A stretch of 64,000 nucleotides of DNA from Escherichia coli (GTDB taxonomy: Bacteria; Pseudomonadota; Gammaproteobacteria; Enterobacterales; Enterobacteriaceae), in NCBI RefSeq assembly GCF_016026235.1, contig NZ_CP065613.1; one strand, given 5' to 3'. The position numbers and the translations under genes were made by a program. Positions 1 to 49,223 of this stretch are shown here, one piece after another. The notes under the pieces were generated by a model, which saw only the letters and a program-made list of their open reading frames with translations, was not told the DNA's origin and did no database searches. Every line of letters begins with the position of its first letter. Within the stretch, counting starts at the first letter, position 1.

Positions 1-183
1 TGCGCCAGCAATGCCTCAGCGATGGCGCTTTCACTCCCCGTTCCTACCGCCATTGGCCGACGTCCATGCCAACTGAAGACCGTAGTGCCCTAATACTTCG
101 CGCCACGCTTTACGGTGCGTAGGCTCCGTATCCAGGATTGTGCCATCCATATCAAAAATTAAACCTGCATAACGCTCGTACAT
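1..183 (-). pseudogene. yqaB: yqaB-like HAD phosphatase, 5' part, apparently disrupted: ATG at 183-181, HAD motif I (DMDGT), in-frame stop at 31-33, second frame open to window edge
   Basis: Minus-strand translation from 183 gives MYERYAGLIFDMDGTILDTEPTHRKAWREVLGHYGLQ then LAWTSANGGRNGE-stop; a different frame reads SWHGRRPMAVGTGSESAIAEALLA to the edge. Confidence 0.5.
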
Positions 184-465
184 GGTCTTCTCGCAAGTCG
201 AAAAATATGACGCTACTTTAGCGTAATTGCTTGATTTTGTCGCTGATGGAGAAGGAGAAGAAAATTCAGGAAATGGATAAAGTAGTTATTTAGAAATGAG
301 ATATTTTTGAAGGAAATTTTTTGGAGAATATGGTGCATCTGGGAGGATTACTCGCCTTGCGGCTCGCCCTTCGGGCCGTTGCTAAAGCAACGTTATCCTC
401 CCTGGTGCCTGCAGTTAATACCCCTACCTCTTCGATATCTTCATTGCTGAAGATTTCGGAGAATA

Positions 466-542
466 TGGTGCATCCGGGAGGATTCGAACCTCCGACCGCT
501 CGGTTCGTAGCCGAGTACTCTATCCAGCTGAGCTACGGATGC
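466..542 (-). tRNA. tRNA-Arg (anticodon ACG)
   Basis: 77-nt reverse complement reads GCATCCGTAGCTCAGCTGGATAGAGTACTCGGCTACGAACCGAGCGGTCGGAGGTTCGAATCCTCCCGGATGCACCA. Confidence 0.95.
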
Positions 543-740
543 ATCGGGAAAATTTATTTTACTGCTGATATTGATATCGCTACTAAAGCCATATCAAGTA
601 AGAGATGGTGCATCCGAGAGGATTACTCGCCTTGCGGCTCGCCCTTCGGGCCGTTGCTGGCGCAACGTTATCCTCCCTGGTGCCTGCGGTTAATTCCGCT
701 ACCTCTTCGATATCTTCATTGCTGAAGATTTCGGAGAATA

Positions 741-817
741 TGGTGCATCCGGGAGGATTCGAACCTCCGACCGCTCGGTTCGTAGCCGAGTACTCTATCC
801 AGCTGAGCTACGGATGC
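741..817 (-). tRNA. tRNA-Arg (anticodon ACG)
   Basis: Identical 77-nt tRNA sequence to 466-542. Confidence 0.95.
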
Positions 818-1016
818 ATCGGGAAACTTACTTTACTGCAGATTTTTTGATACCGCTACTAAAGCCGTATCAAGTAAGAGATGGTGCATCCGGGAGGATT
901 ACTCGCCTTGCGGCTCGCCCTTCGGGCCGTTGCTAAAGCAACGTTATCCTCCCTAGTGCCTACGGTTAGTACCGCCACCTCTTCCATACCTTCATCGCTG
1001 AAAGTTACGGAGAATA

Positions 1017-1093
1017 TGGTGCATCCGGGAGGATTCGAACCTCCGACCGCTCGGTTCGTAGCCGAGTACTCTATCCAGCTGAGCTACGGATGC
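1017..1093 (-). tRNA. tRNA-Arg (anticodon ACG)
   Basis: Identical 77-nt tRNA sequence to 466-542. Confidence 0.95.
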
Positions 1094-1096
1094 AAA

Positions 1097-1189
1097 TGGC
1101 GGTGAGGCGGGGATTCGAACCCCGGATGCAGCTTTTGACCGCATACTCCCTTAGCAGGGGAGCGCCTTCAGCCTCTCGGCCACCTCACC
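1097..1189 (-). tRNA. serV: tRNA-Ser (anticodon GCU)
   Basis: 93-nt reverse complement GGTGAGGTGGCCGAGAGGCTGAAGG...CCGCCTCACCGCCA with long variable arm and GCU anticodon. Confidence 0.9.
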
Positions 1190-1471
1190 ACACGCCTCTT
1201 ACGAGTGCTTCGAAGAACTTGTTTATCGCTCATCGTCGCTGCGTGGCGCACATATTACTTTCTGAGACTTATAAGTCAAACAATTTTTCCCACACTTTTA
1301 TCGTTTGCACACTTCACGCTCAATTAGTCTGTAAAAACGTCAAAAAGAGTGTTTTATCAACAGAAAAACGGAGGTCTGACAGATAGCAGTAATGTAAAAA
1401 AATGGAGACTTAAGTTGAATGAACGGGAGTAAAGCGAAAAGACTATAGAGTGAAGGAGAAATTTTGAGGGT

Positions 1472-1497
1472 GCGTCTCACCGATAAAGATGAGACGC
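1472..1497 (-). terminator. Hairpin just downstream of csrA (7-bp stem gcgtctc/gagacgc), putative terminator
   Basis: Inverted repeat 1472-1478 / 1491-1497 immediately 3' of the csrA stop; weak U-tract. Confidence 0.4.
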
Positions 1498-1504
1498 GGA
1501 AAGA

Positions 1505-1690
1505 TTAGTAACTGGACTGCTGGGATTTTTCAGCCTGGATACGCTGGTAGATCTCTTCACGGTGAACAGAAACTTCCTTCGGGGCATTTACGCCAATACG
1601 TACCTGGTTGCCCTTTACCCCTAAAACTGTCACGGTGACCTCATCCCCAATCATGAGGGTCTCACCAACTCGACGAGTCAGAATCAGCAT
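1505..1690 (-). CDS. csrA: Carbon storage regulator CsrA (61 aa)
   Basis: Translation [61 protein letters not shown]. Confidence 0.98.
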
Positions 1691-1924
1691 TCTTTGCTCC
1701 TTGAAAGATTAAAAGAGTCGGGTCTCTCTGTATCCCGGCATTATCCATCATATAACGCCAAAAAGTAAGCAATGACAAACACATTACATCTAAGCAGTCA
1801 TGGCATTACATTCTGTTAAACCTAAGTTTAGCCGATATACACAACTTCAACCTGACTTTATCGTTGTCGATAGCGTTAATGCGAATGCCGTGAAGCGAGT
1901 CCACGGCATTGCCTGACGCTTATA

Positions 1925-4555
1925 TTATTGCAATTTCGCGCTGACCCAGCCTTTCACACTGGCTAACGCTGCAGGTAAGGCCGCAGCATCCGTACCACCG
2001 GCTTGCGCCATGTCAGGACGTCCACCACCCTTGCCGCCCACCTGCTGAGCGACCATACCAATCAGTTCCCCTGCTTTCACACGATCTGTGACGTCCTTAG
2101 ATACGCCTGCAATCAGAGAAACCTTACCTTCGGCTACCGTTGCCAGCACGATAATTGTCGACCCCAGCTGATTTTTTAAATCGTCAACCATGGTACGCAA
2201 CATTTTCGGCTCAACACCGCTAAGCTCGCTAACCAACAGCTTAACACCATTAACATCAATTGCCTTACTGGAAAGATTTGCGCTCTCCTGTGCGGCAGCT
2301 TGTTCTTTAAGCTGTTGTAGTTCTTTTTCTAACTGACGCGTACGTTCCAGTACTGAGCGCACTTTATCAGCCAGATTATTGCTATCGCCTTTCAGCAGAT
2401 GTGCGACTTCGCTTAAGCGATCGCTGTCTGCATGAACGGTGGCGATAGCGCCTTCTCCGGTTACCGCTTCGATACGACGAACGCCTGCAGCAGTGCCCGA
2501 TTCAGAGATGATGCGGAACAGACCAATATCACCAGTGCGGCTGGCGTGAGTACCGCCACACAGCTCGGTGGAGAAATCGCCCATGCTCAGCACGCGTACG
2601 CGCTCATCATACTTCTCGCCGAACAGCGCCATCGCACCTTTCGCTTTCGCCGCTTCGAGATCCATGATGTTGGTTTCGATCGGCAAATTGCGACGAATCT
2701 GTGCGTTCACCAGGTCTTCGACCGCACGAATCTCTTCTGGTTTCATCGCTTCGTTGTGTGAGAAGTCGAAGCGCAGCACCTTGTCGTTAACCAGTGAACC
2801 TTTCTGCGATACATGAGTACCCAGAACCTGGCGCAGCGCAGCGTGCATCAGGTGCGTTGCGGAGTGATTCAGACGAATACGGGCGCGACGAGCCTCATCA
2901 ACATCAGCCTGCACAGCGTCGCCCACTTTCAGAGAACCCGCAGCAAGTTTACCGATGTGACCAATCGCCTGGCCGTATTTCTGCGTATCTTCCACCACGA
3001 AGGAGAAGTTAGCGCCTTTCAGTTCGCCTTTATCACCAACCTGACCGCCGGATTCCGCATAGAATGGCGTTTGATCCAGCACGACCACAGCTTCCTGGCC
3101 TGCATTGATGGCATCAACCGCTTTACCATCAACAAACAGCGCGGTCACTTTGCCGTTCAGTTCCAGATGGTCATAGCCTTTAAATTCAGATGCACTGTCA
3201 ACACGGATCATTGCGTTGTAATCGGCACCAAAGCCGCTGGCTTCGCGCGCCCGACGACGCTGCTCTTCCATTGCTGCTTCAAAACCAGCTTCGTCAACTT
3301 TGATGTTGCGCTCACGACAAACATCAGCCGTCAGGTCAACCGGGAAGCCATAGGTGTCGTACAGACGGAAAGCAGTTTCACCATCCAGCGTATCACCAGA
3401 AAGTTTTGCCAGCTCTTCATCCAGCAACGCCAGACCGCGCTCCAGAGTACGAGCAAACTGCTCTTCTTCAGTCTTCAGCACCTGCTCAACCTGCGCCTGC
3501 TGGCGTTTCAGGTCTTCACCCGCAGAGCCCATAACGTCGATCAGCGGACCAACCAGTTTGTAGAAGAAGGTTTCTTTCGCGCCGAGCATATTACCGTGAC
3601 GCACTGCGCGACGAATGATACGACGCAGTACATAACCACGGTTTTCATTGGACGGCATTACGCCATCCGCGATCAGGAACGCACAAGAACGAATGTGGTC
3701 AGCGATTACGCGCAGCGATTTATTGCTCAGATCGGTTGCGCCAGTGACTTTCGCTACCGCCTGAATCAACGTGCGGAACAGGTCGATGTCATAGTTAGAG
3801 TTAACGTGTTGCAGCACCGCAGCAATACGCTCCAGACCCATACCGGTATCTACAGACGGCTTCGGCAGCGGTTCCATCGTGCCATCGGCCTGGCGGTTGA
3901 ACTGCATGAAAACGATGTTCCAGATCTCAATGTAGCGGTCGCCGTCTTCTTCCGGACTTCCCGGAGGGCCACCCCAAATGTGGTCGCCGTGATCGTAGAA
4001 GATTTCGGTGCACGGGCCGCACGGACCAGTGTCACCCATCTGCCAGAAGTTGTCAGATGCGTATGGCGCACCTTTGTTATCGCCGATGCGAATAATACGT
4101 TCGCGCGGGATCCCGACTTCTTTTTCCCAGATTTCGTAGGCTTCGTCGTCGCTTTCATAGACGGTAACCCACAGACGCTCTTTCGGCAGGGCAAACCATT
4201 TTTCGCTGGTCAGCAGTTCCCATGCAAACTGAATGGCATCGTGTTTGAAATAGTCGCCGAAGCTGAAGTTGCCCAGCATTTCGAAGAAGGTATGGTGACG
4301 CGCGGTGTAACCGACGTTTTCCAGGTCGTTGTGTTTACCACCCGCACGCACGCAGCGTTGGGAAGTGGTAGCGCGGGAATAATTACGCTTGTCGAGCCCA
4401 AGGAACACATCCTTGAACTGGTTCATCCCGGCGTTGGTAAACAACAAAGTTGGGTCGTTATGGGGTACCAGGGAGCTGCTGGCAACTACCTGATGTCCCT
4501 TACTATGGAAAAAGTCGAGAAACGCCTGACGGATCTCAGCGGTGCTCTTGCTCAT
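1925..4555 (-). CDS. alaS: Alanine--tRNA ligase (876 aa)
   Basis: Full-length ORF, N-terminus [21 protein letters not shown], class II aaRS. Confidence 0.97.
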
Positions 4556-11090: not shown

Positions 11091-11165
11091 TGAGACTAAT
11101 AGAATGCCTGATGCGCTACGCTCATCAGGCATACAGGACTTCCGCCACTACATTAAGGAAAAGTT

Positions 11166-11591: not shown

Positions 11592-12365
11592 ATGAAACCT
11601 CGTCAGCGTCAGGCCGCCATTCTGGAGTATCTGCAAAAGCAGGGTAAATGCTCGGTTGAAGAATTGGCGCAATACTTTGACACCACAGGCACAACCATTC
11701 GCAAAGATCTGGTCATTCTGGAACATGCCGGAACCGTCATTCGTACTTATGGCGGAGTGGTGTTGAATAAAGAGGAATCCGATCCGCCTATCGATCATAA
11801 AACACTCATCAACACCCACAAGAAAGAGCTGATTGCAGAAGCTGCCGTTAGTTTTATCCATGATGGCGATTCGATCATTCTTGATGCTGGCAGTACCGTT
11901 TTGCAGATGGTTCCCCTGCTCTCGCGCTTTAATAACATCACGGTGATGACCAACAGCCTGCATATCGTCAATGCGCTATCCGAACTGGATAACGAACAAA
12001 CTATCCTGATGCCAGGCGGAACGTTTCGCAAAAAATCGGCCTCATTTCACGGGCAACTGGCAGAGAATACCTTCGAGCATTTCACCTTCGATAAATTGTT
12101 TATGGGCACCGACGGCATCGATCTCAATGCGGGCGTAACCACCTTTAACGAGGTTTATACCGTCAGTAAGGCAATGTGCAATGCCGCGCGCGAAGTGATT
12201 TTGATGGCGGACTCATCAAAGTTTGGCCGTAAAAGCCCCAACGTAGTTTGCAGTCTTGAAAGCGTCGATAAGCTGATTACCGACGCAGGTATCGATCCGG
12301 CGTTTCGTCAGGCGCTGGAAGAGAAAGGGATCGATGTGATCATAACCGGAGAGAGCAATGAGTGA
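11592..12365 (+). CDS. srlR: DeoR-family glucitol repressor (257 aa)
   Basis: N-terminal [32 protein letters not shown]. Confidence 0.93.
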
Positions 12366-13323
12366 AGCACTACTGAACGCGGGACGTCAGACGTTAATGC
12401 TGGAGTTGCAGGAAGCAAGCCGTTTACCGGAACGTCTGGGCGATGATTTTGTTCGCGCCGCCAATATCATCCTGCACTGCGAAGGCAAAGTGGTGGTTTC
12501 GGGAATTGGCAAATCGGGCCACATTGGTAAGAAAATCGCCGCAACACTTGCCAGTACCGGCACACCGGCTTTTTTTGTCCATCCGGCAGAAGCACTGCAC
12601 GGCGATCTGGGGATGATTGAAAGCCGCGATGTGATGCTGTTTATCTCTTACTCCGGTGGCGCGAAGGAACTGGATCTGATTATTCCGCGTCTGGAAGATA
12701 AATCTATCGCGCTGCTGGCGATGACCGGCAAACCGACGTCACCGCTGGGCCTGGCGGCAAAAGCGGTGCTGGATATCTCCGTAGAACGCGAAGCCTGCCC
12801 GATGCACCTTGCGCCGACCTCCAGCACCGTCAATACCCTGATGATGGGTGACGCGCTGGCGATGGCGGTCATGCAGGCGCGCGGATTTAATGAAGAAGAT
12901 TTTGCCCGCTCCCACCCAGCCGGGGCACTGGGCGCTCGCTTGCTGAATAAAGTGCATCATCTGATGCGCCGTGACGATGCCATCCCACAGGTGGCGTTAA
13001 CCGCCAGCGTGATGGATGCGATGCTGGAACTCAGCCGCACCGGTCTGGGGCTGGTGGCGGTATGTGACGCTCAACAACAGGTACAAGGCGTCTTTACCGA
13101 CGGCGATTTACGTCGCTGGCTGGTAGGCGGCGGCGCACTCACCACGCCAGTTAATGAAGCGATGACGACAGGCGGCACCACGTTACAGGCGCAAAGTCGC
13201 GCCATCGACGCCAAAGAGATCCTGATGAAGCGCAAAATCACTGCCGCACCGGTGGTGGATGAAAACGGCAAACTCACCGGCGCAATTAACCTGCAGGATT
13301 TCTATCAGGCCGGGATTATTTAA
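12358..13323 (+). CDS. gutQ: Arabinose-5-phosphate isomerase GutQ (SIS + CBS domains, 321 aa)
   Basis: SIS motif [15 protein letters not shown]; operon context. Confidence 0.93.
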
Positions 13324-14834
13324 TCCTTCAATCCCAGACGTTTCGCCAGCCGATGCAGGTTGGCGACGTCGGTTTCCAGCATCCGCGCGCAGGCAGCCCA
13401 GTTGTGATGATTTTGTGCCAGTGCCTGGCGAATGGTTTCACGCTGGAACGCTTCTGTCGCTTCACGCAGGTTTTGCTTAACAACGGGCACCGCCGCCGCT
13501 TCTGGCGGCGGCAACGTCACCTCAGGAAAAGCAAAATGTTGCGCCTCAAGAATCACTTCATCGCCGTTGCGGGTGGCTCTCGCCAGCACTACCGCCCGAT
13601 GAATAGCATGTTCCAGTTCGCGCACGTTCCCCGGAAAACGATAGTGTTGCAGTAAATTTCGCGCTCCGGCACTTAATACCACGCGGGAGAGCCCCAGCCG
13701 CAAACGACACTGCTCGCAGAAATACCCCGCCAGCAGAATGACATCATCGCCCCGCTCACGCAGCGGCGGCACCGAAAGTGGAAACACGCTCAGGCGATGA
13801 AACAAGTCAGCGCGAAATCGCCCTGCCAGCACCTCTTCGCGTAAGTCGCGGTTAGTCGCCGCCAGCACGCGCACATCGACCCGCAAACTACGGTCATCGC
13901 CAACGCGCTGAATATCGCCATACTGCAACACCCTCAGCAGCTTGGCCTGCAATGCCAACGACAACTCGCCGATCTCATCCAGAAACAGAGTGCCGTTATC
14001 CGCCATTTCAAACTTCCCGCTGCGGTTACTGATAGCGCCAGTAAACGCTCCTTTCACATGCCCGAACAACTCACTTTCCGCCACACTTTCCGGCAGTGCA
14101 GCACAGTTGAGATAGACCAGCGGATTCACCGCCCGTGGCGAGGCTTCATGAATCGCTTTCGCCACCAGCTCCTTACCGGTTCCCGTCTCACCGCTGATCA
14201 GGACGTTGAGATCGGACGCCGCCACAATCTCAATCTCTTTTTTCAGTTGCGTCATGCCAGGGGACAAGCCAATCATCTGCGTCTGTTTCACCGCTTCAAA
14301 CGGCGTGGCATCGCCTGGCATCATATTCTGGCTTTCCAGTTGTTCAATCAGCAACGCATTGCTTAACGCTCCCGCCGCCAGCGCAGCAATCAGCCGTAGC
14401 TCTTCGTCGCTGAAAACATCGAACTGATCGGGCTGCATCCCGTCGAGCGTCAGTGCGCCGATCAGGTTTTGTCCGGCAAACAATGGCAGACCAACGCAGG
14501 CGTGAACCTTCAGACTCTCCTGCCCAGGAATCAAACCGTCATAGGGATCGGGCAATTCGCTGTCTGCGGGAAAGCGCACCACATCCCCGGCGCGGGCAAT
14601 CGCTTCCAGCCGTGGATGCCCTTCCAGCGCAAAGCGTCTACCGAGTACATCCTTCGCCAGCCCGTCGATGGCAAGGGGAATAAACTGCCGCGAGTCATAA
14701 CGTAGCAACGCAGAGGCATCACACTCCAGCACCTGACGCAGCGTGGTGATCAGGCGCTGAAAACGATCCTGATGACCAATCCCACGCTGCAATTCGATGG
14801 CGATATTCGCCAGCACATCAACGGAAAAACTCAT
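13320..14834 (-). CDS. norR: NO-responsive sigma54 activator NorR (504 aa; start at MSFSVDV)
   Basis: GAF + AAA+ ([14 protein letters not shown]) + HTH; divergent from norVW. Confidence 0.95.
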
Positions 14835-14846
14835 CTTTGCCTCACT

Positions 14847-14902
14847 GTCAATTTGACTATAGATATTGTCATATCGACCATTTGATTGATAGTCATTTTG
14901 AC
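14847..14902. promoter_or_regulatory. Three NorR enhancer sites (GTCA-N7-(T)GAC) in the norR-norV intergenic region
   Basis: gtcaatttgac (14847-14857), gtcatatcgac (14868-14878), gtcattttgac (14892-14902). Confidence 0.75.
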
Positions 14903-14957
14903 TACTCATTAAGGAGCATAATTTTATTTATAGAGTAAAAACAATCAGATAAAAAAC

Positions 14958-14973
14958 TGGCACGCAATCTGCA
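14958..14973 (+). promoter_or_regulatory. sigma54 promoter of norVW (TGGCAC-N5-cTGCA)
   Basis: tggcacgcaatctgca, 48 nt upstream of the norV ATG. Confidence 0.8.
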
Positions 14974-15020
14974 ATTAGCAAGACATCTTTTTAGAACACG
15001 CTGAATAAATTGAGGTTGCT

Positions 15021-16460
15021 ATGTCTATTGTGGTGAAAAATAACATTCATTGGGTGGGTCAACGTGACTGGGAAGTACGAGATTTTCACGGCACGGAATA
15101 TAAAACGCTGCGCGGCAGCAGCTACAACAGCTACCTCATCCGCGAAGAAAAAAACGTGCTGATCGACACCGTCGACCATAAATTCAGCCGCGAATTTGTG
15201 CAGAACCTGCGTAATGAAATCGATCTGGCGGATATCGATTACATCGTGATTAACCATGCAGAAGAGGACCACGCTGGGGCGCTGACCGAACTGATGGCGC
15301 AAATTCCCGATACGCCGATCTACTGTACTGCCAACGCTATCGACTCGATAAATGGTCATCACCATCATCCGGAGTGGAATTTTAATGTGGTGAAAACTGG
15401 CGACACGCTGGATATCGGCAACGGCAAACAGCTCATTTTTGTCGAAACACCAATGCTGCACTGGCCGGACAGCATGATGACTTACCTGACAGGCGACGCG
15501 GTGCTGTTCAGTAACGATGCTTTCGGTCAGCACTACTGCGACGAGCATCTGTTCAACGATGAAGTGGATCAGACGGAGCTTTTCGAGCAGTGCCAGCGTT
15601 ACTACGCCAATATCCTGACGCCGTTCAGCCGCCTGGTAACGCCGAAAATTACCGAGATCCTGGGCTTTAACTTACCAGTCGATATGATAGCGACCTCCCA
15701 CGGCGTGGTCTGGCGCGATAACCCGACGCAAATTGTCGAGCTGTACCTGAAGTGGGCCGCTGATTATCAGGAAGACAGAATCACCATTTTCTACGACACC
15801 ATGTCGAATAACACCCGCATGATGGCTGACGCTATCGCCCAGGGGATTGCGGAAACCGACCCACGCGTGGCGGTGAAAATTTTCAACGTCGCCCGAAGCG
15901 ATAAAAACGAAATCCTGACCAATGTCTTCCGCTCAAAAGGCGTGCTGGTCGGCACTTCGACGATGAATAACGTGATGATGCCGAAAATCGCCGGGCTGGT
16001 TGAGGAGATGACCGGATTACGCTTCCGTAACAAACGCGCCAGTGCTTTCGGCTCTCACGGCTGGAGCGGCGGTGCGGTGGATCGTCTTTCCACGCGCCTG
16101 CAGGATGCGGGTTTCGAAATGTCGCTTAGCCTGAAAGCGAAATGGCGACCAGACCAGGACGCTCTGGAGTTATGCCGTGAACACGGTCGCGAAATCGCCC
16201 GTCAGTGGGCGCTCGCGCCGCTGCCGCAGAGCACGGTGAATACGGTAGTTAAAGAAGAAACCTCTGCCACCACGACGGATGACCTCGGCCCACGGATGCA
16301 GTGCAGCGTCTGCCAGTGGATTTACGATCCGGCAAAAGGCGAGCCAATGCAGGACGTTGCGCCAGGAACGCCGTGGAGTGAAGTCCCGGATAACTTCCTC
16401 TGCCCGGAATGCTCCCTCGGCAAAGACGTCTTTGAAGAACTGGCATCGGAGGCAAAATGA
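15021..16460 (+). CDS. norV: Anaerobic NO reductase flavorubredoxin (479 aa)
   Basis: Full-length ORF with C-terminal rubredoxin CxxC...CPEC motifs. Confidence 0.96.
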
Positions 16461-17590
16461 GTAACGGCATTGTGATCATTGGTTCGGGCTTCGCCGCCCG
16501 CCAACTAGTGAAAAATATTCGCAAACAGGACGCCAGTATTCCATTAACCCTGATTGCCGCCGACAGCATGGATGAGTACAACAAACCTGACCTCAGCCAT
16601 GTTATCAGTCAGGGGCAACGTGCCGACGACCTTACCCGCCAGACGGCAGGTGAATTTGCCGAGCAGTTTAATCTGCGCCTGTTTCCGCAAACCTGGGTGA
16701 CGGATATCGATGCAGAAGCCCATGTAGTAAAAAGCCAGAATAATCAGTGGCGATACGACAAGCTAGTGCTGGCAACCGGTGCCAGCGCCTTTGTCCCGCC
16801 AGTGCCTGGGCGTGAGTTAATGCTGACATTAAATAGTCAGCAAGAGTATCGCGCCTGTGAAACGCAACTGCGGGATGCACGACGCGTGTTGATTGTTGGC
16901 GGTGGTTTGATTGGTAGCGAACTGGCGATGGATTTTTGTCGTGCAGGCAAAATGGTTACGCTAATCGACAACGCTACCAGTATTCTGGCGTCGTTAATGC
17001 CACCGGAAGTAAGCAGTCGCTTGCAGCATCGGTTGACGGAGATGGGCGTTCATCTGCTGTTGAAATCTCAGTTGCAGGGGCTGGAAAAAACGGATTCTGG
17101 CATTCTGGCAACGCTGGACCGCCAGCGTAGTATCGAAGTGGATGCGGTAATTGCCGCCACCGGACTGCGCCCGGAAACCGCCCTGGCACGACGTGCCGGG
17201 CTGACGATTAATCGCGGCGTTTGCGTCGATAGTTATCTGCAAACCAGTAATGCCGATATTTACGCGCTGGGCGATTGCGCGGAAATTAACAGTCAGGTAT
17301 TGCCGTTCCTGCAGCCGATTCAACTTAGCGGGATGGTGCTGGCAAAAAATCTTCTCGGCAATAACACACCGCTGAAACTACCGGCGATGCTGGTGAAAAT
17401 CAAAACGCCGGAATTACCGCTGCATCTGGCAGGCGAAACCCAGCGTCAGGATTTACGCTGGCAGATTAATACCGAACGCCAGGGAATGGTGGCGCGCGGC
17501 GTTGACGATGCTGACCAGCTTCGCGCCTTTGTGGTCAGTGAGGATCGGATGAAAGAGGCATTTGGATTGTTGAAAACGTTGCCGGTGTAG
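16457..17590 (+). CDS. norW: Flavorubredoxin reductase (377 aa)
   Basis: FAD/NAD(P) motif [10 protein letters not shown]; 4-nt overlap with norV. Confidence 0.95.
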
Positions 17591-17595
17591 GTGGG

Positions 17596-17792
17596 CTACT
17601 GTGCCTAAAATGTCGGATGCGACGCTGGCGCGTCTTATCCGACCTACGGGGAGCGCATGTGTTGGTCACATAATGCGTTCATGTCACATACAGCTACTGT
17701 GCCCAAAATGTCGGATGCGACGCTGGCGCGTCTTATCCGACCTACGGGGACGCATGTGTAGGCCGGATAAGGCGTTTATGCCGCATCCGGCA
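17596..17792. repeat. REP/BIME cluster: two ~96-bp tandem units plus a terminal REP palindrome
   Basis: ctactgtgcc[t/c]aaaatgtcggatgcgacgctggcgcgtcttatccgacctacgggga occurs twice (17596, 17692); aggccggataaggcgtttatgccgcatccggca at 17759. Confidence 0.85.
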
Positions 17793-17818
17793 ATAATGGT
17801 GTTCAGATGCAACACGTT

Positions 17819-20071
17819 TTATCCGTTCTGGACTTCACCCGCTAACCAACGCGCCGCAGCAATAACCCCCTGCCCCAAAGACAAACCGCCATCACCCGCC
17901 GGTAAACTCTGTGGAAAGAGCAATGTGAAATCAGCGAGATAATGCGCCAGACGTGCACGCAGCAAACGGTTATGAATAACCCCGCCGCTAAATACCAGCG
18001 TAGTGATACCACGCATCGTGGCCTGCTCACGCATCAACGCGGCAAAACCCTGCGCCAGCGCATCATGAAACGCCCACGCGCGTTGATTAACCGAAGCCTG
18101 CCAGTTCAGCCACTGCTGCCAGAAAGTGGCGAGATCCAGTTGATTGTCCACCAGCGGTATCGTCACCGGATGCGTCACTCCGTCACATGAGGCTGCGAGC
18201 GCCTCCAGAGCACAAGCCGCTTCACCTTCATAACTTAACGTGGCTGGCGCACAGCCCAGTCCCGCCGCCACAGCATCGAACAAACGCCCACACGATGACG
18301 CCAGCGGCGCGTTAATTCCACGCTCAATAGCCCGCGCCAGCACGCTCCAGTTTTGCTGTTGCACACTTGCCGTTTCAGAGTAATTCTGCCACTCCGGCAC
18401 AAAGCGCAGGCACTGCGCCAGCAGGTTTCGCCACGGCTGCTTCGCCGCCAAATCGCCACCCTGAAGCGCCACTGCAGGCAAGCCGCCCAGGTGCTGGCAT
18501 TCGCGATAGTTCACCCGCAGGCACTCGCCGCCCCACAAAGCGCCGTTCTCCCCCATACCGATACCGTCGAGCGTCAACGCAATGACATCACCGCCATCCA
18601 GCGGCCACTGATGCTCTGCCAGACACGCCGCCGCATGAGCATGATGATGAAGCACCGTTTGTGTCGGCAGATTCATTTCGCGCGCCCACTGGCTGGAGAC
18701 ATAGCCCGGATGCGCGTCATGCACAACGTATTGCGGGGTGAAATCGTAGATGTTTTGCATCAGGCGTAACGCTTCGCGCCACTGCATCTGGATGCCATCG
18801 TCACTTAAATCGCCCAGATGCTGGCTCAACACCGCTTGTTCACCGCGCACCAGGCAGAAGGTATTTTTCAGATCCGCGCCGAGACACAGCACAGGCGGAA
18901 CATTTTTAAAGCCCGGAGGCAAAGCCAGCGCATCCGGCACATACCCCCGCGAACGGCGCAGCATTTCGCCGCTTTCGCGCACCACCGAATCATCCATCCG
19001 CTGCACGATGTCGCGGTTATGTATCAAGAATCCGTCGGCAATGCCCTGCAAATCCGCCAGCGCCTGTTCGTTGCTGATAGCCGGTGGTTTACCGCTCAGG
19101 TTGCCGGAGGTCATCACCAGCGGGCATTGCAGTTCCTGTAACAGCAAATGCTGGAGCGGGTTCGCAGGCAACATCACTCCGACTTCGTTAAGGCCAGGGG
19201 CGATATCATCACAAAGCTCAGGTACGTATTTTTTATCCACCAGCACAATCGGCGCAGCGGGCGTGGTAAGCAACTGGCGCGCAGCGTCTGGTAAACCGTC
19301 AGCCACTGGCAACATGACCGCCAGCGGTTTCGCCGGGCGATGTTTGCGCGCCCGAAGTGTCGCCACCGCGTTACTGTTACGTGCATCGCAGGCAAGATGA
19401 AATCCGCCAATCCCTTTGATGGCGACAATGTTGCCCATTTTTAACTGTGCGATAGCCGCCTGTAATGCCGCCTCTTGTTCCGCATGTTCACCATGACTTA
19501 CCCATTCAAGATGTGGGCCACACTCCGGGCAGGCCACCGGCTGGGCGTGGAAGCGACGATCGAGCGGGTCGCGGTACTCTTTATCACAGGCTGGACACAG
19601 CGGAAACGCCGCCATTACGGTAAACGGGCGGTCGTAAGGCATGGCGCGAATAATGGTGAAACGCGGGCCGCAGTGGGTACAGTTGATAAACGGATAACGA
19701 TAACGCCGCTCGCCTGGGGTATTCATTTCGGCAAGGCAAGCAGGGCAAGTAGCGGCATCGGGAACAATTTGCGTATTCATGGCACCTCCCGCGCTCTGGC
19801 GGATGGTGAACTCAGTGGGCAGTTGTGACCAGATGTACGGCTCACGCTCGACGCTATCAATACGCGCCAGCGGCGGGCAGTGCTGATGCAATTGAACAAG
19901 AAACGTTTCCGGGTCTTCCCGCAGCCGGACTTCTACGCCATCGCCGTCATTACAGACATCGCCGTGAAGATTTAATTGCTGTGCCAGCTGCCAGACAAAC
20001 GGACGAAAACCGACGCCCTGCACTTTGCCACGAATACGCAGTTGGACACCGCAAGATGTGTTTTTTGCCAT
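17819..20071 (-). CDS. hypF: Hydrogenase maturation carbamoyltransferase HypF (750 aa; start at MAKNTSCG)
   Basis: Acylphosphatase N-terminus and zinc-finger CxxC pairs; the track ORF has a 24-codon extension. Confidence 0.95.
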
Positions 20072-20223
20072 TGAGTTATTCCCGCCATCATGAATTGCGT
20101 AACCCGTCCAGCCGGACACGACAGCGTCGCATCCGGCAGTCACAGGTCGGCGATACCGCCCGCTCCGTATTCTACGAATATTTCCGGGAATTCCTTTGAT
20201 GCCAGAACAGTTCTGTAAGATTT

Positions 20224-20751
20224 TTAGAACATCAGCGCCGTACGGCGGCGTTTTTCTGCGCTCAGTTGTTCAAGTTTATTGCGATCGACACAAATTAGCG
20301 CATGGGTCGGGCAAGCCGCCATACACGCCGGGCCGTCTTCACGATGGTTGCACAGGTCGCATTTATTGGCTTCGGCTTTGTCAGCCCGTACATTCAGCCC
20401 CGCGCCGCTGTTGCGAATCACCGGACGTACCACCACTTCCATCGCGCCATACGGGCAAGCCACAACGCAGGTTTTGCAACCAATGCAACGTTCCTGCATC
20501 ACATGAACAAACCCTTTATCACGGCTGATAGCACCATTCGGGCAGACGTTAGCGCACGGTGCATCTTCACACTGACGGCAAACTGTCGCCGTGGAAATGT
20601 TCACACCTTTAATGACATGGATACGCGGTAAAAATGTTTCCGGGGTCAGCGATGCACAGTCCTGATTTTCCTGATGAGAAACCACGCACGCCACTTCACA
20701 GGTACGGCAACCAATACATTTACTCGCGTCAGCAATGATGAAACGGTTCAT
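20224..20751 (-). CDS. hydN: Fe-S electron-transport protein HydN (175 aa; start at MNRFIIAD)
   Basis: Multiple CxxCxxCxxxCP ferredoxin motifs; upstream of hypF. Confidence 0.92.
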
Positions 20752-20899
20752 CAAATTCTCCAGCAATGACAGTTAATGCGCCGATACATTCACAAATCAT
20801 GCCAGTTTTTAATTTGCTGTTATTTAAGGAAATTAATTTCTGTAATGCAGGAAAAAAGATGTCATCGACACTAGTGACGATGACATGTGATGACAATGT

Positions 20900-21910
20900 T
20901 TATCGCGAAAGAGCAATGAGTGAGTCGCGGCAGATCAGTTTTCCGCTGAAGGTTTTCGGCGGTGAGAAATCCCCGCCATCGAGCATAAAAATCAGCCGTC
21001 CAATAATTTCCTGAATCATCTCAGTCACCGGAATTTTTACGCTGGAGAGCGCCGGAACGATATAGGGGGCAATTGCGATATCATCGAATCCGATAACTGA
21101 CACCTGCTCTGGCACCGCTACGCCGCGCTCGTGTAACGCTTTCATCGCACCTATCGCCATATCGTCGTTACTGGCAACTAACGCGCTAAATTTAGCCCCA
21201 CGTTCGAGCAACATTTCTACCCCTTCGGCCCCGCTGGCAGGCGTCCATTTACCGTTAGCGATAAGTTTTTCATTGAGCGCAATACCATGCTGCGCCAGCG
21301 CGTCTTTATACCCGGCAAGACGTTCAATGCTGGTGGGGGAATCCATCGAGCCGGTAAGGAAAGCAATCTCCTGATGCCCGGCGTTTATCAACTCTGCCAC
21401 GGCATTAAAGCTGGTCTGTTTATGATCGCACCAGACGCTATGGCTGCTATTTTTGCGCAGGCGGCGATTAAGCACCATTATCGGCTGACTGTGCGCGTCA
21501 ATAATGTCATCGATCTCATCCACGCTTAAAAAACGCGGGTAAATCATAATGGCGTCGCAGCGCAAATCCAGCAGATACTGAATCGCCTGGCGCTCTTCTT
21601 CGGCGCTGTGTTTACCATCTGCCAATAGCAACTGCCGCCCTTTCTCTTCCGCCATTCGCGCGGCATGAAAGAGTAATTCACTAAAATAAATGCCGTGGTA
21701 AAGCGTGTTGGTCACTACCAGCCCCAGCGTCTGAGTACTCTTCGCCGACAGATTGCGCGCCAGCAAGTTTGGACGGTAACCGCTCTCTTCTACCGCCTGA
21801 AACACGCGATCTTTAGTCTCCTGGCTGACGTAGCCATTACCTGAAAGCACGCGGGAAACGGTCGCTTTTGAAACCCCGGCGCGCTTCGCCACTTCCAGCA
21901 TCGTCGTCAT
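20900..21910 (-). CDS. ascG: LacI/GalR-family repressor of the cryptic asc operon (336 aa)
   Basis: HTH MTTMLEVAKRAGVSKATVSRVLSG; divergent from ascFB. Confidence 0.93.
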   Translation of the reverse strand: MTTMLEVAKRAGVSKATVSRVLSGNGYVSQETKDRVFQAVEESGYRPNLLARNLSAKSTQTLGLVVTNTLYHGIYFSELLFHAARMAEEKGRQLLLADGKHSAEEERQAIQYLLDLRCDAIMIYPRFLSVDEIDDIIDAHSQPIMVLNRRLRKNSSHSVWCDHKQTSFNAVAELINAGHQEIAFLTGSMDSPTSIERLAGYKDALAQHGIALNEKLIANGKWTPASGAEGVEMLLERGAKFSALVASNDDMAIGAMKALHERGVAVPEQVSVIGFDDIAIAPYIVPALSSVKIPVTEMIQEIIGRLIFMLDGGDFSPPKTFSGKLICRDSLIALSR

Positions 21911-22169
21911 CATTTTCATCCCTTTACACGCAATCAACGCAGTGTACTGCACCGTTTACCGATTGTCCTTGCGCAATTGGCGGGAAAAATATTCAGGTGA
22001 CCGGTTTCACAAATATAAAAAATGAACAATTAACTCTCTTGCTTATTTGGTGACAACTATTCATGATTTTGTGAAACCGGTTTCTTAATTCCGTTTCAGC
22101 ATCGGCATTTTTCCGTCACGTCGACTGATAACAACTACATCTACCCTACTGATAACAGGATAAAATCCG

Positions 22170-25060
<2,891 letters not shown>

Positions 25061-25281
25061 GTAACCATGCCGGATGCGGCGTGAACGCCTTATCCGGCCT
25101 ACATGTCGCACGAACCAGGTAGGCCCGATAAGCGTAGCGTATCGGGCAATTTGGCGTTTGGCATCAGTTAGTAACCGCGCCGGATGCGGCGTGATGAATG
25201 CCTTATCGGGCCTAGTGTCGCACGAACCAGGTAGGCCCGATAAGCGCAGCGCATCGGGCAATCTGGCGTTTGCTATCAGTT
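25061..25281. repeat. REP/BIME cluster: two ~110-bp tandem units each holding two REP palindromes
   Basis: gtaacc..gccggatgcggcgtga..ccttatc[c/g]ggcc..aggcccgataagcg.agcg.atcgggcaa repeated at 25061 and 25171. Confidence 0.85.
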
Positions 25282-47858: not shown

Positions 47859-49223
47859 ATGTCCACAATTACATTGTTATGCATTGCGTTAACTGGCGTA
47901 ATCATGCTGTTGCTGCTGGTCATCAAGGCAAAGGTACAACCATTCGTTGCTCTGCTCCTCGTCAGCCTGTTAGTCGCACTTGCGGCGGGTATACCGGCGG
48001 GCGAAGTGGGTAAAGTGATGATCGCCGGGATGGGCGGTGTGCTTGGTTCCGTCACTATTATTATTGGTCTGGGCGCTATGCTGGGGCGTATGATCGAACA
48101 CTCTGGTGGTGCAGAGTCACTGGCTAATTATTTCAGTCGCAAGTTAGGTGACAAACGAACTATCGCTGCGCTGACTCTGGCAGCGTTCTTCCTCGGTATT
48201 CCCGTCTTCTTTGATGTCGGCTTTATTATTCTTGCGCCAATCATTTACGGTTTTGCCAAGGTTGCCAAAATATCGCCACTCAAATTTGGCCTGCCTGTCG
48301 CTGGGATCATGCTAACTGTACATGTGGCGGTACCGCCGCATCCAGGCCCTGTCGCCGCAGCGGGGTTACTCCACGCAGACATCGGCTGGCTAACCATCAT
48401 CGGTATTGCGATTTCTATTCCCGTAGGGATTGTTGGCTACTTTGCAGCGAAAATAATCAATAAGCGCCAATATGCGATGTCGGTGGAAGTACTGGAACAG
48501 ATGCAACTGGCTCCGGCCAGTGAGGAAGGCGCGACAAAATTAAGCGATAAAATAAATCCACCGGGCGTCGCGCTGGTCACCTCGCTAATTGTTATTCCTA
48601 TCGCGATTATCATGGCGGGTACGGTTTCCGCAACACTGATGCCGCCTTCGCATCCCCTGCTTGGTACGCTACAGCTGATCGGCTCACCAATGGTAGCTCT
48701 AATGATTGCGCTGGTGCTGGCATTCTGGTTATTGGCTTTACGTCGCGGCTGGAGCTTACAACACACCAGCGACATTATGGGCTCAGCGCTTCCTACTGCG
48801 GCGGTAGTGATTTTGGTTACTGGTGCTGGAGGGGTATTTGGCAAAGTGCTGGTGGAATCGGGCGTCGGCAAAGCCCTTGCCAACATGTTACAAATGATTG
48901 ACCTGCCTCTGTTACCAGCCGCATTTATTATTTCACTGGCGCTGCGTGCATCGCAGGGGTCAGCAACCGTAGCAATACTGACAACCGGCGGGTTACTCTC
49001 AGAAGCGGTGATGGGATTGAATCCGATTCAGTGCGTATTGGTGACGCTGGCAGCCTGCTTTGGTGGGCTTGGTGCGTCACATATTAATGACTCAGGGTTC
49101 TGGATTGTGACCAAATATCTGGGATTGTCGGTAGCAGACGGTCTGAAAACCTGGACAGTGTTAACGACCATTCTCGGTTTTACCGGATTCTTAATTACCT
49201 GGTGCGTATGGGCGGTAATTTGA
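47859..49223 (+). CDS. ygbN: GntP-family permease (454 aa)
   Basis: Polytopic membrane protein. Confidence 0.9.
   Translation: MSTITLLCIALTGVIMLLLLVIKAKVQPFVALLLVSLLVALAAGIPAGEVGKVMIAGMGGVLGSVTIIIGLGAMLGRMIEHSGGAESLANYFSRKLGDKRTIAALTLAAFFLGIPVFFDVGFIILAPIIYGFAKVAKISPLKFGLPVAGIMLTVHVAVPPHPGPVAAAGLLHADIGWLTIIGIAISIPVGIVGYFAAKIINKRQYAMSVEVLEQMQLAPASEEGATKLSDKINPPGVALVTSLIVIPIAIIMAGTVSATLMPPSHPLLGTLQLIGSPMVALMIALVLAFWLLALRRGWSLQHTSDIMGSALPTAAVVILVTGAGGVFGKVLVESGVGKALANMLQMIDLPLLPAAFIISLALRASQGSATVAILTTGGLLSEAVMGLNPIQCVLVTLAACFGGLGASHINDSGFWIVTKYLGLSVADGLKTWTVLTTILGFTGFLITWCVWAVI

Follow-up and report, generated by a model that had tools for sequence, protein, structure and literature searches.

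A tandem REP/BIME array with a variable number of units where norW and hypF of Escherichia coli converge

The gap between norW and hypF of E. coli is largely occupied by a tandem array whose units are each a bacterial interspersed mosaic element (BIME), and comparison of the gap across 5,426 E. coli genomes gives zero to five units, as expected from the initial annotation, which had proposed a strain-variable site. The REP/BIME nature that it had assigned to the array is also borne out, by the GTAG/CTAC feet, the imperfect palindromes and the REP head motifs, and by the recurrence of the same module between phnL and phnK. We consider it very probable that the locus is a tandem atypical BIME array in which whole units come and go in register and which has a putative role at the 3′ ends of the flanking transcripts. 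REP/BIME clusters have been known as a class since the 1980s–90s, and the norW–hypF array is a known kind of element with a known kind of polymorphism, now detailed at one locus. Our literature search found nothing on the norW–hypF (ygbD/hypF) REP locus.

The window analysed here is a 64,000-nt stretch of E. coli DNA. In it norW, encoding NADH:flavorubredoxin reductase (377-aa ORF; 16457–17590, + strand), ends with the TAG stop codon at 17588–17590 and faces hypF, encoding carbamoyltransferase HypF (17819–20071, − strand; stop codon at 17819–17821). Both gene names were taken from the RefSeq annotation of homologous loci, and the 5′ end of hypF was set by the 2,253-nt length of the gene in those annotated loci; the longest ORF extends to 20143. 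The gap between the two convergent genes is 228 bp long in the window, and the array, at 17595–17792, occupies 198 of the 228 nt. It lies where the initial annotation placed it; the statement there that it fills the whole gap needs this small correction. A promoter/terminator scan of 17591–17818 returned no terminator-like site on either strand, the REP hairpins have no T tails, and the IHF consensus WATCAANNNNTTR, allowing up to one mismatch, has no match in the same interval. Each strand of the gap is folded much more stably than shuffled sequences (z-scores of −5.5 and −6.7). Over positions 12000–24000 the window is only 98.4–98.5% identical to the best-ranked of the 5,426 complete E. coli genomes; it may belong to a sparsely sampled lineage or to Shigella, which is absent from the genome collection.

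The array is built on a direct repeat with a period of 98 nt, in which 17595–17652 and 17693–17750 are identical at 57 of 58 positions (repeat search). The window holds exactly two occurrences of the 58-mer, with up to three mismatches allowed, where 100 shuffles give an expectation of 0.00. A unit of about 96 bp starting at 17596 and 17692 had been described before; the duplication stands, and its size and starting points are now 98 nt and 17595 and 17693. The 46 nt that follow the repeat block are only 74% alike (17649–17694 versus 17746–17791). Tandem Repeats Finder gave no report on the array even at a minimum score of 30, because there are just two copies and their 3′ parts have diverged.

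Each unit consists of an 18-nt leader (GCTACTGTGCCYAAAATG), a z1-like iREP, a linker of 12–13 nt, GGGGA(G)CGCATGT, and a slot for a y REP. Unit 1 (98 nt; 17595–17692, + strand) carries the 37-nt iREP TGTCGGATGCGACGCTGGCGCGTCTTATCCGACCTAC at 17611–17647, recognised by GTAG on the − strand, by its inverted repeat and by a match to the REP head motif, and then, by direct reading of the sequence, the 13-nt linker GGGGAGCGCATGT at 17648–17660. Its y slot holds a decayed relic, which we call V (GTTGGTCACATAATGCGTTCATGTCACATACAGC; 17661–17694), the last 2 nt of which overlap the start of unit 2. Unit 2 (100 nt; 17693–17792, + strand) carries an identical copy of the iREP at 17709–17745, the 12-nt linker GGGGACGCATGT at 17746–17757, and an intact y-type REP, GTAGGCCGGATAAGGCGTTTATGCCGCATCCGGCA, at 17758–17792, which forms an inverted repeat. 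V aligns in register with the y REP at 74% identity; GTTG stands in place of its GTAG, and its stem is gone. The window array thus contains three intact REP hairpins, two z and one y, plus one dead y relic. The inverted REP that the initial annotation had reported at 17759, as a further element after the two units, is a genuine REP, but it belongs to unit 2 as its 3′ part, and its counterpart in unit 1 has decayed. Folding agrees with this anatomy: the z hairpin reaches −20.8 kcal/mol (z-score −4.7 against shuffles) and the y hairpin −19.1 kcal/mol on the + strand and −19.5 on the − strand, whereas V reaches −4.0 kcal/mol (z-score +1.4), no better than shuffles. Unit 2 of the window corresponds to the sole unit in K-12 and O157.

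The z and y copies are hairpin-forming palindromes within the 20–40 nt expected of a REP, and V is not. The GTAG foot is found as GTAGGTCGGATAAG on the − strand at 17634–17647 and 17732–17745, and as GTAGGCCGGATAAG on the + strand at 17758–17771. REPs are dispersed elements, and the present ones conform to this in their intergenic position, in the many head motifs around them and in the presence of the same module at phnL–phnK: the 64-kb window holds 10 matches to the head motif GTAGGYCKGATAAG at up to two mismatches, where 0.68 are expected, and an 801-bp norW–hypF query matches a median of 3 places per E. coli genome. In unit 2 the arrangement iREP(z)–12 nt–REP(y), with inverted arms at 17729–17745 and 17758–17774, is that of a BIME. 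We also considered V as a separate dispersed motif and rejected this, since a query containing V was unmatched in all 3,451 genomes without a multi-unit allele; V is thus specific to the norW–hypF locus, a local decay product.

The window contains further REPs. A second BIME at 25070–25250 has four alternating REPs spanning 25089–25244, with heads at 25089 (−), 25119 (+), 25202 (−) and 25231 (+); these four are among the 10 head-motif matches, and by K-12 gene order this site is probably the ascB–hycI gap. Single REP-like matches lie at 11121–11134, 20125–20135, 24453–24466, 48334–48344 and 52066–52099, and one of them sits in the hypF–hydN gap, upstream of hypF. The REP of the hypF–hydN gap was mistaken for a shared promoter motif in a tiling-array paper (PMC3009722).

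The 801-bp query located the norW–hypF locus in 5,425 of the 5,426 complete E. coli genomes, in several length classes. K-12 and O157 have one unit (z–linker–y) in a 127-bp gap; the window, AHM8C212RI and Nissle 1917 have two units in a gap of 223–229 bp; and direct reading gave three units in 88-3493 (324 bp), four in STEC1585 (419 bp) and five in VCSW8 (517 bp). A 76-nt query spanning the junction between V and the next unit showed that 1,975 of the 5,426 genomes (36%) have two or more units, with 2,120 matching places in all and at most 4 per genome. The 145 extra junction places give a rough estimate of a few dozen three-unit genomes, a few dozen four-unit genomes and at least one with five, and about 1,900 further complete genomes appear, from their junctions, to have two units. 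The one-unit form is the commonest at about 2,765 genomes (~51%), a number obtained as the remainder after the multi-unit and BIME-less classes and cross-checked against an evenly spaced sample of 39 chromosomes, of which 20 have one unit, 14 have two and 5 are BIME-less. The gap is thus a clean length polymorphism (78, 127, ~225, 324, 419 and 517 bp) that could serve for typing, and short-read assemblies may miscount its units. In two loci (L008 and L016), one pair of the z stem changes within a single array from C–G to T–G in unit 2 and to T–A in units 3 and 4, a compensatory series.

The BIME-less class, with a 78-bp gap, was read in EC200461, and the same allele class is present in 685 of the 5,426 genomes (12.6%). 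In this allele (EC200461, locus L004, 592–692; L012 is alike) the BIME together with the last ~13 codons of hypF is replaced by unrelated sequence, so that HypF ends in ...AAARILHAA*, 4 aa shorter than the usual C-terminus. The 78-bp gap contains a GC-rich hairpin, CTCCCTCGCCC-AAA-GGGCGAGGGGA, with a 9-bp stem in the fold. An exact match to this allele over the ~180 nt compared occurs in DXKH01000030.1 (L012), a contig of the 'Citrobacter sp.' MAG HRGM_Genome_0066; the contig probably comes from E. coli and was mis-binned into that MAG. Citrobacter youngae (L011) itself has, in the first ~130 nt past norW, a pair of Citrobacter-type REPs (TGCCGGATGGCGGC... / GTAGGCCGGATAAGGCGCAGCCGCCATCCGGCA), so the site is REP-occupied in another genus too.

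What the array does at this site, where the initial annotation had raised a stabiliser or insulator role, can be approached from other REPs, which are reported to block 3′–5′ exonucleases, to stabilise upstream mRNA and to bind gyrase, Pol I and IHF (PMC12306157; PMC3333891); Term-seq data also place a BIME at the mapped 3′ end of a transcript (PMC9023263). With no intrinsic terminator in the gap, the REP hairpins are the only strong 3′ structures available to both convergent transcripts. They would be transcribed into the 3′ ends of both, where they would block 3′-to-5′ exonucleases and define stable 3′ ends, and the array DNA may in addition serve as a binding site for gyrase or relieve the supercoiling between polymerases that converge. 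By analogy with these systems, we give about an even chance to the proposition that the hairpins matter at norW–hypF as a 3′-end barrier. Ribosome stalling by REPs occurs only when the stop codon and the REP are separated by less than 16 nt (PMC12306157). Here the norW stop ends at 17590, 21 nt before the first stem base (17612), and the hypF stop (17819) is 26–27 nt from the y REP (17792), so this mode is not expected.

The strongest competitor to a 3′-end role, which we judge somewhat short of an even chance, is that the array is a neutral passenger, selfish or junk DNA whose copy number drifts with no effect on norVW or hypF. Natural isolates retain alleles with 0, 1, 2, 3, 4 and 5 units, and V has lost its structure and yet has not been removed. 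With 12.6% of genomes BIME-less and 51% carrying a single unit, the extra units are dispensable and could be neutral. Set against drift is the presence of a structured element in the gap of every lineage examined, be it REPs in Escherichia, the other hairpin in the BIME-less allele or the REP pair in C. youngae; the compensatory change from C–G to T–A in the z stem, with its T–G intermediates, points faintly in the same direction. These comparisons lend weak support to the idea that structure of some kind is needed at the site. A far more specific proposal, that the number of units (0–5) is a heritable knob tuning the stability or read-through of the norVW and hypF transcripts, with V, which E. 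albertii shares with E. coli, kept as a spacer or processing site and not by chance, seems to us quite improbable. If true, it would touch the transcripts for NO detoxification (norVW) and hydrogenase maturation (hypF), and only if unit number affects norVW or hypF expression does the locus pose a new question.

The order of the parts within the arrays bears on how units come and go. In all 11 arrays parsed, V is in every internal unit and y in every terminal unit. A pattern scan of species-representative genomes found three units each in E. albertii and Escherichia sp. E1V33, again with V in the internal units, and the V-bearing three-unit array of E. albertii makes the z–V–...–z–y arrangement older than the split between E. 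coli and E. albertii. Unit 1 of E. albertii (locus L009, 2280–2380) is without most of the leader and has ~12 extra nt, GCGCTACAGGGAAC, in its linker, a form that suggests a separate rearrangement in that lineage. We propose that whole units are gained or lost in register when the nearly identical z-bearing segments undergo unequal homologous exchange or when replication slips between them. As V lies between two z copies and y lies outside them, each gain would copy z together with V and leave a single intact y at the end of every array, and loss of all z+V segments would return the array to the one-unit K-12 form. VCSW8 carries a unit 4/5 chimera, whose leader comes from unit 4 of STEC1585 and whose z and V come from unit 3 of STEC1585; on its sequence, this chimeric unit is a direct footprint of in-register exchange. 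The two units of Nissle (B2) differ at many positions whereas those of the window differ at 1 of 58, a difference that points, for some lineages, to repeated homogenisation or to recent turnover. The window junction is 100% identical in 27 genomes, 25 of which have two junction copies, and the one read among these, 88-3493, has three units, which makes contraction of that three-unit array the best reading of the window allele. The locus is a tidy natural case in which in-register exchange would keep one intact terminal REP and copy a dead internal one.

Unit gain and loss might instead be driven by the REP-associated tyrosine transposase, RAYT/TnpA-REP, cutting at the iREP and linker sites, with no call on homologous exchange or slippage. 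TnpA-REP cleaves in vitro at the C|T sites of iREP and linker and yields recombination products with an added REP, and amplification models have been built on this (PMC3333891); the z iREP at norW–hypF retains its CTAC foot. The exchange point in the VCSW8 chimera, however, falls within the leader/z homology and not at the linker site, and 58–62 nt of near-identity at a spacing of 98 nt suffices for slippage or RecA-mediated exchange. We regard cutting by RAYT as unlikely to be the driver, and favour in-register exchange or slippage.

The gap might also encode a trans-acting sRNA, the repeat then duplicating part of its gene; the candidate is C0664, which may map to the norW–hypF intergenic region of K-12. 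C0664 appears in the literature as an sRNA that contains a REP and whose function is unknown (PMC12306157), and overexpressing it produced no phenotype in a screen for biofilm and motility (PMC4606813). The promoter scan found no promoter-like site in 17300–18100, no Rfam family reaches its gathering score in the gap, and the records of MG1655 (NC_000913.3) and W3110 (NC_007779.1) annotate no RNA gene there. A signal from the gap is more simply explained as a REP-stabilised fragment of a 3′ UTR, and we hold the sRNA reading to be highly improbable.

Finally, we find it scarcely credible that unit 2 of the window was created by assembly, or that the window is a three-unit array collapsed to two: short-read assemblers can collapse 98-bp repeats, and nearly all genomes with the exact 76-nt junction (the 25 of 27 above) carry it twice, with three units in 88-3493, the one read, but AHM8C212RI and AHM8C160RI carry the identical junction once, the former read as a two-unit array, about 1,900 further complete genomes appear two-unit, and the leader of unit 1 reads GCCT in the window as against GCCC in the three-unit strains, which marks a distinct allele and not a simple collapse. 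For this kind of allele as such, the artefact that the initial annotation had named as its refutation is excluded by the 1,975 complete genomes with the inter-unit junction, two of them with the exact junction in single copy.

Among known REP-derived elements, the Rfam family naRNA4 (RF02564) matches the three REP-bearing segments of the gap at 38.5–48.6 bits (E values of 6e-7 to 1e-4), the y REP of unit 2 giving the best match. All of these lie below the gathering cutoff of 59.5 bits, and the only other match in the gap was one chance snoRNA. Like naRNA4/REP325, the array would yield a REP-derived structured RNA; it differs in its locus and in its sub-threshold scores, so we put the resemblance down to shared REP ancestry alone. 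With the VNTR or minisatellite loci used in MLVA, the array shares ~98-bp head-to-tail units, 1–5 copies among strains and lineage-structured alleles, and it differs from them in that its units are REP palindromes; our literature search found no use of the norW–hypF locus as a typing marker.

The phnL–phnK BIME of E. coli, seen on a phn-bearing plasmid, carries the same module of z, linker and y, reading TGTCGGATGCGACGCTG..GCGTCTTATCCGACCTAC, then GGGGAGCGCAT(T/G)T and then a y REP, and its linker GGGGAGCGCATTT is nearly identical to that of unit 1 at norW–hypF. It differs in having one unit, in being without the V relic and in its site within an operon, the norW–hypF array lying between genes that converge. 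The recurrence of the module at this second site makes z–linker–y a dispersed BIME subtype.

The classes of BIME set out by Bachellier and Gilson, as summarised by Ton-Hoang et al. 2012 (PMC3333891), place the array more closely. BIME-1 (RIB/RIP) is a single-copy element in which z1 and y are joined by a long L linker, most often one that contains an IHF site, and we rejected this class for norW–hypF, where the linker is 12–13 nt, the gap has no IHF consensus and the units are in tandem. BIME-2 is made of z2 and y REPs in tandem, and two of its traits, the tandem copies and the short linker, are present. The inner stem and loop of the z REP, GACGCTGGCGCGTC, is of z1 type, like the z1 of nrdB, and because the z REP is z1-like the array is probably not a clean BIME-2. 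The outer stem is GTCGGAT/ATCCGAC, where the nrdB z1 example has GCCTGAT/ATCAGGC, a difference of two compensated pairs. By its parts the norW–hypF element fits an atypical BIME, a chimera of BIME-1 and BIME-2 parts with multiple copies that differ in number from strain to strain; such variation of tandem BIME copy number has been published already (PMC3333891). The array has in common with that class the opposed REP and iREP, the short linker, the z1-type REP, the tandem arrangement and the variable copy number, and it is set apart by holding an intact y REP only in its terminal unit, while the internal units hold a non-palindromic relic.
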